From Halalkalibacterium halodurans (GTDB lineage: Bacteria > Bacillota > Bacilli > Bacillales > Bacillaceae_D), in contig NZ_SNUY01000009.1 of assembly GCF_004376175.1 (NCBI RefSeq), positions 1 through 32,000 of the forward strand: a DNA stretch of 32,000 nucleotides, in the 5' to 3' direction. The notes below the pieces were generated by a model. The model was not told the origin of the DNA. It did not search any database and saw only the letters and a program-made list of their open reading frames with translations. Shown in pieces: positions 26,705-31,481 of the stretch. Within the stretch, counting starts at the first letter, position 1; each line of letters starts with the position of its first letter. Made by a program: the position numbers and the translations under genes.

Positions 26705-26828
26705 GATCAGTTCAGCCGAGCACAGAGCCCCTGAACGAGCAAGCTTCAAACCGATGATAACGGATGCAGAACGCTCTCGGAAAGTCTTCTAATTTCATTC
26801 TGATGGGCTTCTATCCTTCGAAAAATGA

Positions 26829-26872
26829 GAAAAAGATAGTGTACTCACGGATGTCGGTAGACTATCTTTTTC
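26829..26872 (+). terminator. 12-bp hairpin downstream of the reductase gene, abutting the truncated gene remnant
   Basis: GAAAAAGATAGT (26829-26840) pairs with ACTATCTTTTTC (26861-26872). The downstream T-tract is weak (TATGTTT). Confidence 0.45.
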
Positions 26873-26881
26873 TATGTTTAA

Positions 26882-27347
26882 TTGGGCATAAAGAAAATCA
26901 GCGTCATTGGCTCCCCATTTACCGGACCATTTCAGACAATTGATTATGTCTATTACCCGCACAAAGACAATGACGTAGATTCGTCCCCTGTTACAACTCT
27001 TCAGGTCCATTCGACCATCCAGCAGCCGCTCCATATGGATATCCTCGATACTGGCACTCACACTATTAGGGGAATTGCATGGACTGGCGCAGGTTCGATC
27101 ACCTCCGTTAAAGTCAGCACAGATCAAGGTCACACGTGGAGGGAAGCCTCGATGGAAAGCCACGATCCGAAAGGCTATGCTTGGATTCCGTGGTCAATCG
27201 AATGGAACGTATCAAGTAAAAGGGGAATACACCATCATGTCGAAGGCGACCGACTCGGCGGGACGCACGCAGCCGGCAGCACCCTTCTGGAACCGAAAAG
27301 GCTATGGCTACCACGCAATCGATCAAGTGAAAGGAAAGGTGGAGTAG
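26882..27347 (+). pseudogene. 5'-truncated, frameshifted remnant of a sulfite-oxidase-family molybdoenzyme (dimerisation/Ig-like C-terminal domain only)
   Basis: Frame A reads ...IRGIAWTGAGSITSVKVSTDQGHTWREA...YAWIPWSIEWN. Frame B (27075-27347) continues KGEYTIMSKATDSAGRTQPAAPFWNRKGYGYHAIDQVKGKVE*. Removing one A from the AAAA run at 27218-27221 joins them. There is no SD, and only about 175 bp lies upstream where a Mo-binding domain of roughly 200 aa (my estimate) would be needed. Confidence 0.65.
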
Positions 27348-27367
27348 AAGAACGTCATAAATAAAGG

Positions 27368-27395
27368 AAGGACAGACGCCCGTTCGTCTGTCCTT
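27368..27395. terminator. Hairpin terminator between the remnant and the convergent radical-SAM operon
   Basis: AAGGACAGACG (27368-27378) pairs with CGTCTGTCCTT (27385-27395). On the minus strand the T-rich CCTTTATTTAT follows. Confidence 0.7.
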
Positions 27396-27410: not shown

Positions 27411-28049
27411 CTAGCCTTGTTCTTTAAACTTCGTTGGACTTAATTTTTTAAATTCCGTTTTATGAAATAATTCTTCTAACGTTTGTTGAGTTGCCATCCC
27501 ATTAACAGAGACCAATCCATCTTCAAGTATACGAATTTCAATCTTGTTGCTGATGGACGCTATTTGCTGTTCTAGATGTTTATACTTATCCGTTAAAAAA
27601 TGATAGCGCTGGTTTGATGATCCAGTCCAAGGCCTGCTTAAATCCAGCTTCTCTTTTACAAAGGGGCCATCAATTAGTAGATCGATAGCTGAAAGGAACA
27701 GCTGACAGTCCTCCCTTTGTTTAAGATCCTCATACATGTAACCTGAGAAAGACATAACCGTCAGCCCTAAGCTTTTTACCTTTTGTGCAAGCTCTCCTAG
27801 CGCCTCGGGTTGGTCAAAGGGCTCCCCGCCCAGAAAGGTAACGCCCTCAATATCGTGGTTCTCTTTGCTTTCCTTAATCTCATGAAAAAGCTGGTCAATG
27901 CTTATGACTTTTCCATTGTCTACTGACCATGTCCATGGGACTGCACACCCTTCACACCGAATCGAGCATCCTTGAACCCAGAGGCAAAAACGTTTCCCTG
28001 GGCCCTCCACTGAGGTTAAAGGTAAATACCGATGAATACGTAAATCCAT
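27411..28049 (-). CDS. NrdG-like radical-SAM activase (glycyl-radical-enzyme-activase fold) with about 55-aa C-terminal extension; no cognate GRE nearby
   Basis: SVEGPGKRFCLWVQGCSIRCEGCAVPWTW carries CX3CX2C in an NrdG-type context. GVTFLGGEPF and LLIDGPFVKEKLDLSRPWTGSSNQRYHFL are colinear with E. coli NrdG motifs as I recall them (NGPGTRCTLFVSGC..C..C, LSGGDP, VLVDGKF...IWRGSSNQ). The start overlaps the upstream stop (TAATG at 28047-28051). Confidence 0.8.
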   Translation of the reverse strand: MDLRIHRYLPLTSVEGPGKRFCLWVQGCSIRCEGCAVPWTWSVDNGKVISIDQLFHEIKESKENHDIEGVTFLGGEPFDQPEALGELAQKVKSLGLTVMSFSGYMYEDLKQREDCQLFLSAIDLLIDGPFVKEKLDLSRPWTGSSNQRYHFLTDKYKHLEQQIASISNKIEIRILEDGLVSVNGMATQQTLEELFHKTEFKKLSPTKFKEQG

Positions 28050-28795
28050 TAGAAATCCAAGACTCTCCCCGCTGGCGCCTTGTTCGGTTCACGAGTTCCT
28101 TCTCCTTCGTTGAGCTTTCCGTTACTAGGAAACGACAGATGAGGCCTAATCTTTTCTGCAAGGTGTGGCTTAATCGAAAGAACCTCAACAAAATGATCAA
28201 AAGACTTGAAAGAGCCCACATCATTTCGAGCGGAGATGATTCGGCGCGCATACAAGCTGCCAATAGCAGGAATTCTTGCAAGTTCCGCTTCCGACGCGAT
28301 GTTAATATTTACAGAAGAACGCTCATTCAAACGTTCCTCAACCTCACCTTTCTCTATAGGTGCGTTGGCTTTCATATTTGGTCGAGGTGATTCTACTTGG
28401 TTAATCGCGTGATGTGCCGTAAGCTTTTGTTTCGTTTCTGTAGCTACCCTTTTCTTTAAGTGGTCATATTTTGACGACCCCATGGCTTCCAATCGAATTA
28501 AGTACTCTGGGCGAATTATGAACGCATGGACAATTGAGACGATCCAAGCAATGATGTGAATAGTTGACACAACGTTATAAATTGGGTGGTCTGAATGGAA
28601 AATGTCATAAGAAACCATAGTGATAATAAATAGTGCTGCATAAATTAGTGCGGCAATCGTCCACTTTCTTTGCTTCACTTTATAACCAGCGTAAAAAAAT
28701 GAAATATAACTTAACATACCTAACGGAAAAGTCCACATGATCCAAATTGAGTTTCTTATTTCCCAACCCTTCCCTTTACTTGTGATATTCGCCAC
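28049..28795 (-). CDS. Membrane protein: three N-terminal TM helices plus a C-terminal ComEA-like helix-hairpin-helix DNA-binding domain
   Basis: GTG 28795 lies 8 nt after AAAGGAGG. TM segments are IWIMWTFPLGMLSYISFFYAGY, WTIAALIYAALFIITMVSY and VVSTIHIIAWIVSIVHAFII. The HhH is VNINIASEAELARIPAIGSLYARRIISARNDVGSFKSFDHF. The C-terminus is ...APAGRVLDF*. Confidence 0.75.
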   Translation of the reverse strand: MANITSKGKGWEIRNSIWIMWTFPLGMLSYISFFYAGYKVKQRKWTIAALIYAALFIITMVSYDIFHSDHPIYNVVSTIHIIAWIVSIVHAFIIRPEYLIRLEAMGSSKYDHLKKRVATETKQKLTAHHAINQVESPRPNMKANAPIEKGEVEERLNERSSVNINIASEAELARIPAIGSLYARRIISARNDVGSFKSFDHFVEVLSIKPHLAEKIRPHLSFPSNGKLNEGEGTREPNKAPAGRVLDF

Positions 28796-28798
28796 ACG

Positions 28799-29011
28799 TT
28801 ATTCCTCCTTTATCGTTTGTTTATTTTGCTTGTGTGTTACAATTTCAGATTCATAATATTCATGCGTAAAATTGGAATCGACTGTTTCAGCGTCAAGCAA
28901 TTCCTCTAATAACTGAATGTATTCAAGGCACTCTTTTCCCTTGATACCTAATGTCTCAGCAAAGATCTCTCCATCTTCTGTTATGCGGATTTGTAGCTTT
29001 TTTTTATCCAT
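28799..29011 (-). CDS. DUF2997-like small protein
   Basis: MDKKKLQIRITEDGEIFAETLGIKGKECLEYIQLLEELL fits my recollection of the DUF2997 pattern (I-x-I-x-x-DG-x-I...G-x-x-G-x-x-C...LE). GGTGGTGGA lies before ATG 29011. The alternative ATG 29041 would overlap the upstream gene by 17 nt. Confidence 0.6.
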   Translation of the reverse strand: MDKKKLQIRITEDGEIFAETLGIKGKECLEYIQLLEELLDAETVDSNFTHEYYESEIVTHKQNKQTIKEE

Positions 29012-29024
29012 TTCATCCACCACC

Positions 29025-29465
29025 TTACGACTGTACTTCAAAGGTTAATAAAATCGAACGGTCTTTTTGAATAGCTTCCGATTCAAGCTCCAACCCATTT
29101 TTCTTTGCACGCTCCACTAGCCTTGTGTAAGTTTCTTGCTGAATAAGATATTTGTACTCAGTATGCAAATTCTCGATGAACTCTAATGCATGCTCTTGTT
29201 CTACACTTTCATCAAAAATGGCTTCAAAAACCCCTTCTTCATTTTGGTAGAAGCCGATCTTGATATCACCAACTTCGGTTTGATAGTTTGTCTCGTCGCC
29301 TTGAACACTACAGCCATATTGTTCGATTGCCTTCTTTAACAGATGCTCCTTTTTCATGACCGTTTGAATCGTGTAAGCTTTATTTTCATTTCTCTTATCA
29401 ATTAATGTAGCTACTTTTTGACCAACAGCAATGCCAATTGGAATTAAAATTAGTTCTATACTCAT
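29025..29465 (-). CDS. DUF1257/Ycf35-like protein with N-terminal hydrophobic segment
   Basis: AAGGGAGA sits 6 nt before ATG 29465. The alternative ATG 29486 overlaps the AAA stop. The core YTIQTVMKKEHLLKKAIEQYGCSV...IKIGFYQNEEGVFEAIFD...ARLVERAKKNGLELESEAIQKDRSILLTFEV resembles the DUF1257 layout. This is a family call from memory, not a search. Confidence 0.55.
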   Translation of the reverse strand: MSIELILIPIGIAVGQKVATLIDKRNENKAYTIQTVMKKEHLLKKAIEQYGCSVQGDETNYQTEVGDIKIGFYQNEEGVFEAIFDESVEQEHALEFIENLHTEYKYLIQQETYTRLVERAKKNGLELESEAIQKDRSILLTFEVQS

Positions 29466-29485
29466 ATCGTTCTCCCTTCTACTCA

Positions 29486-31147
29486 TTAAAAATCAATCGT
29501 TCGACCACCGCGTGAAGAATGAATGTCCTCTGGCTCTGAATCCATTGGGTTCGCAGAGACTTCTATTGTCGGGCTCTCTGCATATTCCTCGCGATCCTTT
29601 CTCGGAGTAGCAGCAACCGCTCTAACATTCGCCCAGTCTCTGATCTGTTTAATTTGTTCGGCTTGTGTGACTGATAATGGGATAAACTGATTACAAATTT
29701 TTTCAAAGTCTGCTAACGTGACACTTCTCTCTTCATAAAACGCTTCAAACAATCCACTAATGACCACTTGCTCAATTTCAGCACCAACAAAGCCCTCTGT
29801 CAGCCTTGCAAGTCTCTCCAAATTGGATTCTGAAATCTGAAAGTCCCCAATGACACCAGGGTCCTTTAATCGTTTGTCTAAATGTACTTTAAAAATATCC
29901 ATTCGCTCACGAAGTGTAGGTAAATCTACAAAAAAGATTTCATCAAATCGGCCTTTACGCATCATTTCAGGTGGTAGCCCGGAAATATTATTTGCGGTAG
30001 CAATGACGAAGACAGGCTTCTCCTTTTCTTGCATCCACGTTAGAAAGTTCGCAAAAATTCTGGAAGATGTTCCACTATCCCCAGCGCCATTAACTCCACC
30101 AAACCCTTTTTCTATTTCATCGATCCACAAGATGGAAGGGGCGATAGCTTCTGCTGTTTGAATGGCCGAGCGCATCCGTTCTTCACTGCTCCCGACTATC
30201 CCACTATAAATCTTCCCAATATCGAGCCTTAACAATGGAAGCTTCCACATATCACTGATTGCCTTGCTAATTAAACTTTTCCCACAACCTGGAACTCCAG
30301 TAATCATCACACCTTTAGGGGAAGGCAAGCAATATTTTTGCGCTGAATCTAACCATGATTTGTTTCGCTTTTCCAGCCAACGCTTTAAATTTTCAAGTCC
30401 ACCTACATCTTCAATATTGAGGTCACTCGTAACAAATTCTAAAATACCTGTTTTTTTAATAATTTGTTCTTTCTCTTGTAGAATAATCGGTACGTCATTA
30501 ATCGAGAGGTTGCCATCTTCAACCATTGCTCTAGCAAATGCATTTTCCGCCTCAGCTAACGTTAACCCTAAGCTTGCCTTAACTAATTTTTCTTTTTCTT
30601 CTTCCGTAATTTGAAAGTCTAAGCTTGTTTTTTGATTGACTGCTATCATTTCATCTAAACTTTGCTTAATTTCTTCAAAAGTAGGCAATCCAAAATCAAA
30701 TATCGTAATATCTTTTTCCAAATCATCCGGTAAAACAAGCTTTGGTGAGATGAATACGATGTTTTTCGGGTTTGGGCTTTGCTTGAGACTAGAAACAAGG
30801 TCCCTAAGCTTTCGAATAATCTGTTGGTCTGGAACTCGTCCGTCTTCCCCGAAAAACACATGAAAATCAAAAAGGATAAAAATGGCAGGTCCCTGATAAT
30901 TTTCAATATGTTCTAATGCTTTCATCGCTGACCGTGTATCACCTTTACTGGTTTGGTCCCCGCAAATGCCCGTTGTGATCTTCCAAGTGATAACCTTTCT
31001 TGGTGTTTTAATTAACTCTTGATTAGCTGCGACTGATTCGACCAAAGCACGTGCCCGATCCTCTTCCCAAGTAGAAATATAAAGGAATGGAAACCGCGCC
31101 CTAAATAGATTTGCCATTAATCTTTGTTTCTTTTGTCTAACATCCAC
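29486..31147 (-). CDS. Classic-clade AAA+ ATPase, Ycf46-like, with about 260-aa N-terminal domain
   Basis: GAGGAGG sits 9 nt before GTG 31147. Walker A is GVPGCGKS, Walker B is ILWIDEIEKG, and the second region of homology is ATANNISGLPPEMMRKGRFDEIFFVDLP. The N-terminus RARFPFLYISTWEEDRA resembles cyanobacterial and plastid Ycf46. The C-terminus is ...SSRGGRTIDF*. Confidence 0.85.
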   Translation of the reverse strand: MDVRQKKQRLMANLFRARFPFLYISTWEEDRARALVESVAANQELIKTPRKVITWKITTGICGDQTSKGDTRSAMKALEHIENYQGPAIFILFDFHVFFGEDGRVPDQQIIRKLRDLVSSLKQSPNPKNIVFISPKLVLPDDLEKDITIFDFGLPTFEEIKQSLDEMIAVNQKTSLDFQITEEEKEKLVKASLGLTLAEAENAFARAMVEDGNLSINDVPIILQEKEQIIKKTGILEFVTSDLNIEDVGGLENLKRWLEKRNKSWLDSAQKYCLPSPKGVMITGVPGCGKSLISKAISDMWKLPLLRLDIGKIYSGIVGSSEERMRSAIQTAEAIAPSILWIDEIEKGFGGVNGAGDSGTSSRIFANFLTWMQEKEKPVFVIATANNISGLPPEMMRKGRFDEIFFVDLPTLRERMDIFKVHLDKRLKDPGVIGDFQISESNLERLARLTEGFVGAEIEQVVISGLFEAFYEERSVTLADFEKICNQFIPLSVTQAEQIKQIRDWANVRAVAATPRKDREEYAESPTIEVSANPMDSEPEDIHSSRGGRTIDF

Positions 31148-31293: not shown

Positions 31294-31322
31294 ATACTAT
31301 ATTTCTACTATTGTAATGTCCA
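31294..31322 (-). promoter_or_regulatory. Candidate sigma-A promoter of the AAA+/radical-SAM operon with adjacent near-palindrome
   Basis: The minus strand reads TGGACA (31317-31322), N17, TAGTAT (31294-31299). The near-palindrome TATAGTCTATATACTATA (31284-31301, 16/18 symmetric) overlaps the -10 and the TSS region. Confidence 0.3.
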
Positions 31323-31451: not shown

Positions 31452-31481
31452 AAGCCGGACAGCAATAAGAGCTATCCGGCT
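31452..31481 (-). terminator. Terminator of the GNAT gene, insulating it from the downstream operon
   Basis: AGCCGGA (31453-31459) pairs with TCCGGCT (31475-31481). On the minus strand TTATTTCCGTTTTCC follows. Confidence 0.55.

Follow-up and report, generated by a model that had tools for sequence, protein, structure and literature searches.

The stretch of DNA analysed here, called the window, is 32,000 nucleotides of Halalkalibacterium halodurans contig NZ_SNUY01000009.1. On its minus strand, from 31147 to 27411, five genes lie head to tail and encode a Ycf46-like AAA+ ATPase, a DUF1257-like protein, a DUF2997 protein, a partner protein with a helix-hairpin-helix (HhH) domain, and an NrdG-like radical-SAM enzyme. 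The ATPase and the HhH partner end in the same short C-terminal peptide. This shared tail is real, goes beyond chance, is conserved, and is specific to the AAA+ and HhH families. It is rather probably a short linear docking motif for one common receptor, which would most plausibly sit on the AAA+ ring. The peptide, always shared by the variable partner and the ATPase, offers a cheap, testable entry point to an uncharacterised machine.

The shared tail and its conservation

Minus-strand translation places GGRTIDF at 29489-29509, at the end of an ATPase that terminates ...HSSRGGRTIDF, and AGRVLDF at 28052-28072, at the end of a partner that terminates ...NKAPAGRVLDF. Both ends agree with the original prediction, which was made from the sequence alone. 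The full ATPase tail, RGGRTIDF-COOH (residues 546-553), spans 29489..29512 (-) and is followed by the stop codon at 29486-29488; the partner tail, AGRVLDF-COOH, comprises residues 242-248 on the same strand. The two proteins had been described as otherwise dissimilar, and BLASTP between them returns nothing significant (best E 0.47, with the 7-residue tail match among the listed segments). The three other products, predicted to be motif-free, end ...LTFEVQS, ...QTIKEE, and ...KFKEQG.

Both tails had been placed after probably disordered linkers, and AlphaFold gives low confidence to both. The flexible linker of the ATPase covers approximately residues 515-545 (29513..29605, -), varies in length and sequence among homologues, and has a pLDDT (per-residue confidence score) of 58-60 at residues 521-540 and <50 at residues 526-528. 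The partner linker, residues 222-241 (28073-28132, -), directly precedes the tail. When the partner is folded alone, residues 225-248 have a pLDDT <50, and the tail itself scores 34-38 with no secondary structure.

The frequency of the tail was measured at 170 loci, in 163 AAA+, 37 HhH, and 7933 unrelated open reading frames (ORFs) that reach a minimum of 60 aa. The strict motif, G-R-x-[ILV]-D-F at the C-terminus, is expected about 1.9e-6 times per protein given the residue frequencies of the window. It ends 18 of the 163 AAA+ proteins, 5 of the 37 HhH proteins, and one unrelated ORF, which is a frameshifted AAA+ fragment. A medium motif, R.[ILV]D[FYLIV]$, is found in 40 AAA+ proteins, 27 HhH proteins, and 2 unrelated ORFs. 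The loose motif, R.[ILVM][DE][FLIVYMW]$, ends 54 AAA+ and 28 HhH proteins and only 5 of the 7933 others, so the tail does not occur at background frequency in unrelated proteins. None of the DUF1257, DUF2997, or radical-SAM proteins of the 170-locus set carries the loose motif. Among the 77 window ORFs that reach 60 aa, only the ATPase and the HhH protein end in it.

The tail is also conserved among orthologues. The best AAA+ homologues (65-100% identity) end in RGGR[TAP][IVL]DF in 120 of 120 cases; their sources, where named, are Bacillales, Clostridium, a Desulfuromonadaceae metagenome-assembled genome (MAG), and one record labelled Rhodococcus. Little or no variation is seen in the AAA+ alignment at R546, G547, G548, R549, D552, and F553. 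All 13 aligned HhH sequences (the window protein and 12 homologues, 38-51% identical to it) end in GR[IV][ILV]DF, and G243, R244, D247, and F248 are invariant among them.

Across the wider set of cassette loci the AAA+ tails follow GGR[TAMSPR][ILV][DE][FLVIY]. Partner tails are more varied and include GRVIDI, KRVVDI, GRVVDF, DRIVDF, GRRIEF, GRRVDL, ERKVDL, ERNIDL, and GRRIDY. From these sequences the working consensus would be basic-x-aliphatic-acidic-hydrophobic-COOH, with a Gly that is usual yet apparently dispensable in partners. The N-terminus of the partner is swapped between loci while the HhH domain and the tail persist. Partners in Bacilli have a YxeC membrane domain followed by HhH and keep the tail. 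Clostridium has two GYF_2+HhH partners, each ending SRLIDY. The partner in the Desulfuromonadaceae MAG is 353 aa long, has an unrelated N-terminus, and ends VRAPIDF beside an AAA+ protein that ends GGRPIDF.

Other clades share other tails. In a large-phage clade (L141, L155, L159-161, L166, L168) the genes run in the order radical-SAM enzyme, partner, AAA+ protein, a small protein, and DUF1257, with DUF2997 further on; these are large viral contigs. The partner lies upstream of the AAA+ gene, is 281-411 aa long, and has no Pfam or PHROG match. It ends [FY][AST]D[IL][ED][ILF] in all seven loci, with an extra final F in L166. The AAA+ protein ends D/E-[IL]-[DE]-[FLI] plus 0-2 residues in 6 of 7 loci, and LLFDFN in L159. 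Judged by these endings, the ATPase and its upstream neighbour clearly appear to change motif together.

Tail likeness is seen more weakly in three further groups. Locus L135 has the shared-type tails GRALEV and AGMIEV. The phrog_11021 clade, which has no DUF1257, DUF2997, or radical-SAM genes nearby, pairs an AAA+ ending of R-x-L-D-[LIV] with ...RRIEV, ...RDVEV, or ...LELF on the downstream phrog_11021 protein, a weaker similarity. The ParB-like partner clade has basic tails, KKIRVGE versus RRRIMN, with weak similarity. A blind tail-similarity test compared the AAA+ protein with same-strand ORFs of at least 150 aa lying at most 2.5 kb from its gene. Scores of at least 16 were obtained for 24 of 524 such neighbours and for 6 of 1404 controls (odds ratio 11, p 2e-9), a result in favour of the pattern.

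Two viral and cyanobacterial arrangements were observed alongside these groups. In one viral clade (L098:7053-7973; L093, L096, L097, L101, L103) a ParB-like protein (ParB_N + HTH_ParB) is encoded directly upstream of the AAA+ gene and ends in the basic tail KK(K/R)IRVGE, and a RecA/KaiC-like P-loop protein (GGDACGKTS) is encoded directly downstream. A ParB-like gene in the partner position suggests DNA binding as a general property of the variable partner. In cyanobacterium-like loci (L061, L068, L069, L079, L083, L086, L088) the AAA+ protein ends ...AEYQR[ML]EF, a hydrophobic-Glu-Phe ending that resembles the tail core. A canonical DUF1257 is directly downstream in most of them, an upstream protein of ~115 aa ends ...EE(E/Q)LVPC, and no radical-SAM or HhH gene is present.

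The proposed docking role, its probable receptor, and the radical-SAM enzyme

A common docking site was one of two roles first proposed for the tail. This proposal holds in outline: the end motif is conserved, is displayed on flexible linkers, survives domain swaps, and changes jointly in one large-phage clade. The motif [G]-R-x-[ILV]-[DE]-hydrophobic-COOH would dock from its linker into one receptor site within the complex. If this site is part of the AAA+ ring, the ATPase would fill it with its own tail, either in cis or between adjacent subunits, and the partner's matching tail would compete for it. Such competition would anchor the ATPase to the HhH protein at the membrane or on DNA, or present the HhH protein as a client. 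The outcome on the ATPase would be autoinhibition, ring stabilisation, or recruitment of an adaptor or client. We infer, then, that the tail acts as a binding peptide, that its receptor is on the AAA+ protein, and that the two tails compete.

Three observations favour the AAA+ protein as the receptor. The first is that the tail is partly ordered in the AAA+ model and unstructured in the HhH protein alone. Past the linker, the ATPase in the AlphaFold monomer regains a pLDDT of 76 over residues 541-550 and of 67 over residues 551-553. R549 forms a beta-bridge there, and the model suggests beta-strand addition of the tail onto the ATPase body. The second is that some tailed AAA+ genes have no other cassette genes nearby; for 11 tailed homologues, each with at least 5 kb of flank on either side, neither DUF1257 nor DUF2997 nor a radical-SAM gene occurs in the surrounding 6 kb. 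The third is that the AAA+ protein is the sole component common to all tail-sharing clades. The p97/Cdc48 family, with whose D1-D2 region the ATPase aligns along its entire length, recruits cofactors through extreme C-terminal peptides.

The same observations bear on a reading in which the receptor is a third component. Here both tails would enter pockets of a DUF1257-like/DUF2997 oligomer, or of the radical-SAM enzyme, in the manner of HbYX tails. In the cassette, large-phage, and ParB-partner clades and at L135, the AAA+ gene is found together with DUF1257-like and DUF2997 genes. In cyanobacterium-like loci DUF1257 immediately follows the gene for an AAA+ protein with the ending ...QRMEF, and the window genes are translationally coupled. 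Against this stand the 11 tailed loci without these genes, 31 loci that have DUF1257/DUF2997 genes but a tailless AAA+ protein, and the partial ordering of the tail on the AAA+ protein alone. Moreover, Pfam and PDB searches reveal no recognisable peptide-binding domain in the DUF1257-like, DUF2997, or radical-SAM proteins. A third-component receptor is therefore judged unlikely.

Several points weigh against docking on the AAA+ ring as well. The tail is a feature of a subclade and not of the whole family, with only 16-24 of 123 diverse AAA+ representatives carrying a hydrophobic-[DE]-hydrophobic ending. One or two residues extend beyond the motif in a few sequences, as in the AAA+ endings GRTIDFE (L019) and GRIVDFSL (L024) and in the ending GGRVMDFA, and the final hydrophobic residue is missing from the L010 partner (...RPGGRTID). 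Either a free carboxylate on the last hydrophobic residue may not be strictly needed, or these may be assembly errors. Strict residue-by-residue co-variation is not seen within the cassette clade; at L029 and L030 an AAA+ protein ending RRVEF is paired with a partner ending RILDL. The AlphaFold signal for the AAA+ tail is modest (pLDDT 67-76), and the HhH control alignment is shallow at 13 sequences. No AAA+ alignment column separates tailed from tailless proteins among 395 weighted sequences (best difference 0.35), and no receptor signature is found there. Finally, most tail-sharing clades also encode DUF1257-like and DUF2997 proteins, which are candidate receptors too. P0138 and P0242 likewise have tails extended past, or cut before, the last hydrophobic residue of the motif.

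The tail could alternatively be read by something outside the system. A housekeeping protease, an unfoldase, or another host protein would then recognise it as a degron or tag and couple the turnover or localisation of both proteins. ClpX-type unfoldases classically recognise C-terminal peptides, the ParB-partner clade has basic tails (KKKRRKKIRVGE, KKTRRRIMS) that resemble basic C-terminal recognition tags, and some tailed AAA+ genes have no recognisable cassette partners nearby. The motif is, however, near-invariant across Bacillales, Clostridium, Desulfuromonadaceae, and viral contigs, which favours a receptor within the system. The AAA+ protein and its neighbour switch motif together, clearly in the large-phage clade and less so elsewhere, and the lack of motif enrichment in the 7933 unrelated ORFs argues against general use as a tag. 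Recognition by a host protein is very improbable.

Docking on the AAA+ ring admits a more specific version, in which the ATPase is switched by tail mimicry. A Cdc48-like double-ring ATPase would restrain itself with its own tail and be freed or recruited when the identical tail of a sensor or adaptor displaces it. This is a tentative possibility. The same tentativeness applies to the identity of the sensor or adaptor, which could be a membrane- or DNA-bound protein (HhH, ParB-like, or others) within a modular cassette that also holds DUF1257, DUF2997, and the NrdG-like enzyme and would pass between bacteria and large phages.

The second role first proposed makes the tail a substrate of the neighbouring radical-SAM enzyme. 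This enzyme, 212 aa, is encoded at 27411..28049 (-) and matches Fer4_12 (3.4e-36) and Radical_SAM (6e-10). Its score against TIGR02491 NrdG is 120.2 bits, under the equivalog cutoff of 126.1, and it is best described as an NrdG-like paralogue. The CX3CX2C motif at C28/C32/C35 and the GGEPF SAM motif are conserved in a 59-sequence alignment. Across clades the radical-SAM proteins match the family hidden Markov model (HMM) with E 1e-58 to 1e-82 and conserve GPG.R, QGC...C.GC, GGEPF, and GSSNQR, of which GSSNQR is a motif specific to the cassette radical-SAM family. The closest solved structure is the pyruvate formate-lyase (PFL) activase 3c8f (E 2.3e-9). No NrdD-like glycyl-radical enzyme is encoded near the radical-SAM gene in the window.

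As a substrate, the tail would have hydrogen abstracted from its Gly, or that or another residue modified, by the NrdG-like enzyme in both proteins. In favour of this, the NrdG-like activase belongs to the same operon and overlaps the partner stop codon, a radical-SAM gene is present at 7 of 7 HhH-tail partner loci with full flanks, and the RGGR of the AAA+ tails does not vary within the cassette clade. The tail was nevertheless expected to be conserved only where the radical-SAM gene is present, and this is not the case. Among loci with at least 5 kb of flank on each side, tailed AAA+ proteins occur with the gene in 9 loci and without it in 13, and tailless AAA+ proteins have the gene nearby in 21 loci and not nearby in 40. 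The AAA+ tail thus occurs independently of the radical-SAM gene. Partner tails replace the Gly by S, K, D, E, or V/A (SRLIDY, KRVVDI, DRIVDF, ERKVDL, ERNIDL, VRAPIDF). Phage radical-SAM proteins are well conserved (HMM E 1e-58 to 1e-72), yet the tails beside them are FADIEL or KKIRVGE and contain no GR. The canonical RVxG[FY] context is absent, as the original prediction had itself remarked, and [G]GRxΦDΦ is found in its place. With the Gly unconserved in partners and tail and gene independent, the substrate proposal is not supported and is very improbable. The result steers away from a tempting and poorly supported glycyl-radical-site idea. That DUF2997, with its conserved G-x-K-G-x-x-C and EYYE, is the real radical acceptor is pure speculation.

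The five-gene cassette and its genomic setting

The AAA+ ATPase is a 553-aa protein encoded at 29486..31147 (-), with a GTG start and an AGGAGG ribosome-binding site. It is 100% identical to a Halalkalibacterium halodurans protein, and its Joint Genome Institute (JGI) name is 'SpoVK/Ycf46/Vps4 family AAA+'. Pfam matches are AAA PF00004 (9.6e-29) and AAA_lid_3 PF17862 (2.8e-7). The active AAA domain covers residues 280-408 with the lid after it, and the N-terminal half has no AAA-domain match in Pfam. Walker A, Walker B, the arginine fingers, and the lid are those of a classical AAA+ protein (Cdc48/FtsH/PAN clade) of the Ycf46-like subgroup, and GVPGCGKS and MRKGRFDE are invariant or nearly so in the alignments. 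The AlphaFold monomer has a pLDDT of 92.4 and a pTM of 0.87. Foldseek aligns this model with the D1-D2 region of p97/Cdc48/Rix7/Drg1 over ~545 columns (TM 0.62-0.67, identity 17-21%), which indicates a double-tier, tandem D1-D2 fold in which the D1-like half appears degenerate. The presumed pore-loop-1, at residues ~309-320 (window 30190-30225), reads DIGKIYSGIVGSSEE. It is an expanded form of the K-[YW]-x-G-ES-E loop of classical AAA+ unfoldases and keeps the aromatic Tyr; the region is compatible with substrate threading.

The DUF1257-like protein is made up of 146 aa from an ATG at 29465 (29025..29465, -). The start was chosen from homologue N-termini (MSIEL...) and a GGGAG ribosome-binding site. 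The Pfam DUF1257 match is weak and below cutoff (E 0.0016); a family HMM built for this analysis places a DUF1257-like gene beside the AAA+ gene in 73 loci. Residues 1-22 (window 29400-29465) form a hydrophobic N-terminal helix, MSIELILIPIGIAVG..., which is typical of DUF1257-like proteins in radical-SAM/HhH cassettes (L006:9705-10148, L008:2258-2974, L170:4745-5200). Large insertions bring some cassette members to 238-271 aa. The hydrophobic helix and the partner's YxeC membrane domain jointly point to a membrane-associated complex.

The DUF2997 protein is 70 aa long, starts at the ATG at 29011 (28799..29011, -), and matches Pfam DUF2997 at 3.2e-15. Its gene lies beside the AAA+ gene in 71 loci, and the motifs dG....ev.G.kG..C and EYYE are conserved. 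For neither the DUF1257-like nor the DUF2997 protein did PDB sequence searches identify a relative of solved structure.

The variable partner, 248 aa, is encoded at 28049..28795 (-) and is composed of an N-terminal helical membrane domain, an HhH domain, the flexible linker, and the tail. The HhH DNA-binding domain covers residues 160-220 (28136-28318, -; HHH_3 8.7e-15). Homologues carry the precomputed Pfam domains PF27171 (YxeC) and PF12836. AlphaFold predicts helices at residues 6-131 and an HhH domain with a pLDDT of 85-88. Orthology to ComEA (TIGR01259) was considered and rejected, with 43.1 bits against a cutoff of 152.35 and a match to the HHH_3 domain alone. A contig search with the HhH protein as query returned one true locus, and the rest were unrelated ComEA-like matches. 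A homologue search with the fragment that spans HhH and tail gave no matches, since it shared too few words with other sequences.

The five window genes are one terminator-bounded operon. Neighbouring genes abut or overlap and are translationally coupled, and the partner stop and radical-SAM start share TAATG. A terminator-like hairpin at 31453-31481 ends the preceding gene, and an intrinsic-terminator-like hairpin of 11 pairs followed by a T-run closes the operon at 27368..27395 (-). A promoter-like site, TGGACA-17-TAGTAT at 31294..31322 (-), lies between the upstream terminator and the AAA+ start; it is a consensus match only, and promoter-like sites around the operon are no more numerous than in shuffled sequence.

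Flanking genes in the window encode PhoX, an aminotransferase, a methyl-accepting chemotaxis protein (MCP), a phosphotransferase system (PTS) component, PrpD, citrate synthase, a LysR regulator, an alanine symporter, and an aldo-keto reductase. Because these belong to ordinary metabolism and signalling, the cassette is regarded as a self-contained insertion. The interval that separates the aldo-keto reductase gene from the cassette terminator (26760-27364) contains two overlapping plus-strand ORFs in different frames, at 26882-27364 and 27075-27347. No gene is intact there; the ORFs resemble what is left of a frameshifted one, and this remnant may be the scar where the cassette inserted.

The version with a radical-SAM gene forms a coherent cassette of five genes that is mobile. 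In Priestia megaterium the five families are linked and adjoin OLD-type, RelA/SpoT, Mrr, and ParB_N genes. The cassette is near a transposase in Bacillus cereus and near a serine recombinase and RadC in Aneurinibacillus; in these two the AAA+ protein ends ...GGRTIDF and the partner ...SGRMIDF or ...SGRVIDF. The families are also linked in Clostridium, the Desulfuromonadaceae MAG, ~25 metagenome contigs, and two viral contigs, where the contigs were taken at an AAA+ identity of at least 46%. Besides the window, the five-gene set is observed at L006, L007, L008, L090, L091, L094, L098, L155, L161, L170, and L171. It is also present, with shuffled gene order, on many IMG/VR viral contigs, some of 100-380 kb. 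Genomes of cultured phages contain only distant AAA+ relatives of 30-37% identity.

A search of PADLOC-DB v2.0.0 with the five cassette proteins matched no known anti-phage defence system. Individual matches were the AAA+ protein to IetA (partial, AAA domain) and the radical-SAM enzyme to pVip (weak), with none for the other three. No peptidase family was found among the five operon products, the window neighbours, and the related loci.

Comparison with known systems

The glycyl-radical enzyme/activase pairs (NrdD-NrdG, PflB-PflA, GrcA) resemble the cassette in having a small NrdG-like radical-SAM enzyme and a near-C-terminal Gly. They differ in that the cassette enzyme scores below cutoff, RVxG[FY] is absent, the partner Gly is unconserved, and tail and gene are independent.

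DNA-associated proteins share C-terminal peptides to reach one hub, as with the sliding-clamp-binding motifs and the DDDIPF tail of single-stranded DNA-binding protein (SSB). These are likewise short C-terminal peptides, and the cassette partners are DNA-binding (HhH, ParB-like). The cassette tails do not match QL[SD]LF or the acidic DDDIPF, however, and the cassette has no clamp or SSB gene. A motif of this type was rejected on the sequence mismatch.

The EEVD-COOH ends of Hsp70 and Hsp90, read by TPR co-chaperones, are closer in principle, with unrelated proteins of the same system using the same end peptide as a handle. No TPR or known peptide-binding domain was detected in the cassette proteins, and the tail here has one Arg, one acidic, and two hydrophobic residues. 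The C-terminal tail of p97/VCP/Cdc48, bound by PUB/PUL-domain cofactors, is similarly a disordered extension that ends in a conserved peptide. Unlike p97, the cassette AAA+ protein has no N-domain, its D1-like half has no Pfam AAA match, and its tail sequence is unrelated.

HbYX tails (PAN/Rpt, archaeal Cdc48, Blm10/PA200, Pba1-2) were the analogy first drawn for the shared peptide. They too are extreme C-terminal motifs after flexible linkers, present on an AAA+ unfoldase and on unrelated cofactors that all use the same partner pockets, and this docking logic carries over. Membership does not. HbYX is hydrophobic-Tyr-X, whereas the tails here are R-x-hydrophobic-[DE]-hydrophobic, with a penultimate Asp/Glu in all cassette-clade sequences and no Tyr. 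HbYX tails dock on 20S-type rings, but the cassette encodes no peptidase or proteasome-like partner, with neither a 20S nor an HslV-like gene, and the receptor is possibly the ATPase itself.

The Ycf46/Ycf35 (DUF1257)/DUF2997 set of cyanobacteria and plastids is made up of the same protein families as the cassette. DUF2997-DUF1257(ycf35)-fed7 gene clusters have been described (PMC4284462). The cyanobacterial loci differ in having no HhH partner and no radical-SAM gene, and the canonical Ycf35-type DUF1257 (MSHFT...) is without the N-terminal hydrophobic helix of the cassette protein. A literature search found no paper on this cassette and no function for the AAA+/DUF1257/DUF2997 (Ycf46, Ycf35) set, which is conserved from plastids to Bacillota and jumbo-size phages. 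The shared peptide could reveal who contacts whom and how the ATPase reaches DNA or the membrane. Should the ATPase be switched by tail mimicry, that would also offer a first lead on the mechanism behind the cyanobacterial and plastid Ycf46/Ycf35 genes, which have long gone unexplained. The principle of a docking peptide is known from the systems above, and this widely distributed cassette would apply it in a new form, joining an AAA+ ATPase to a variable partner that mostly binds DNA.

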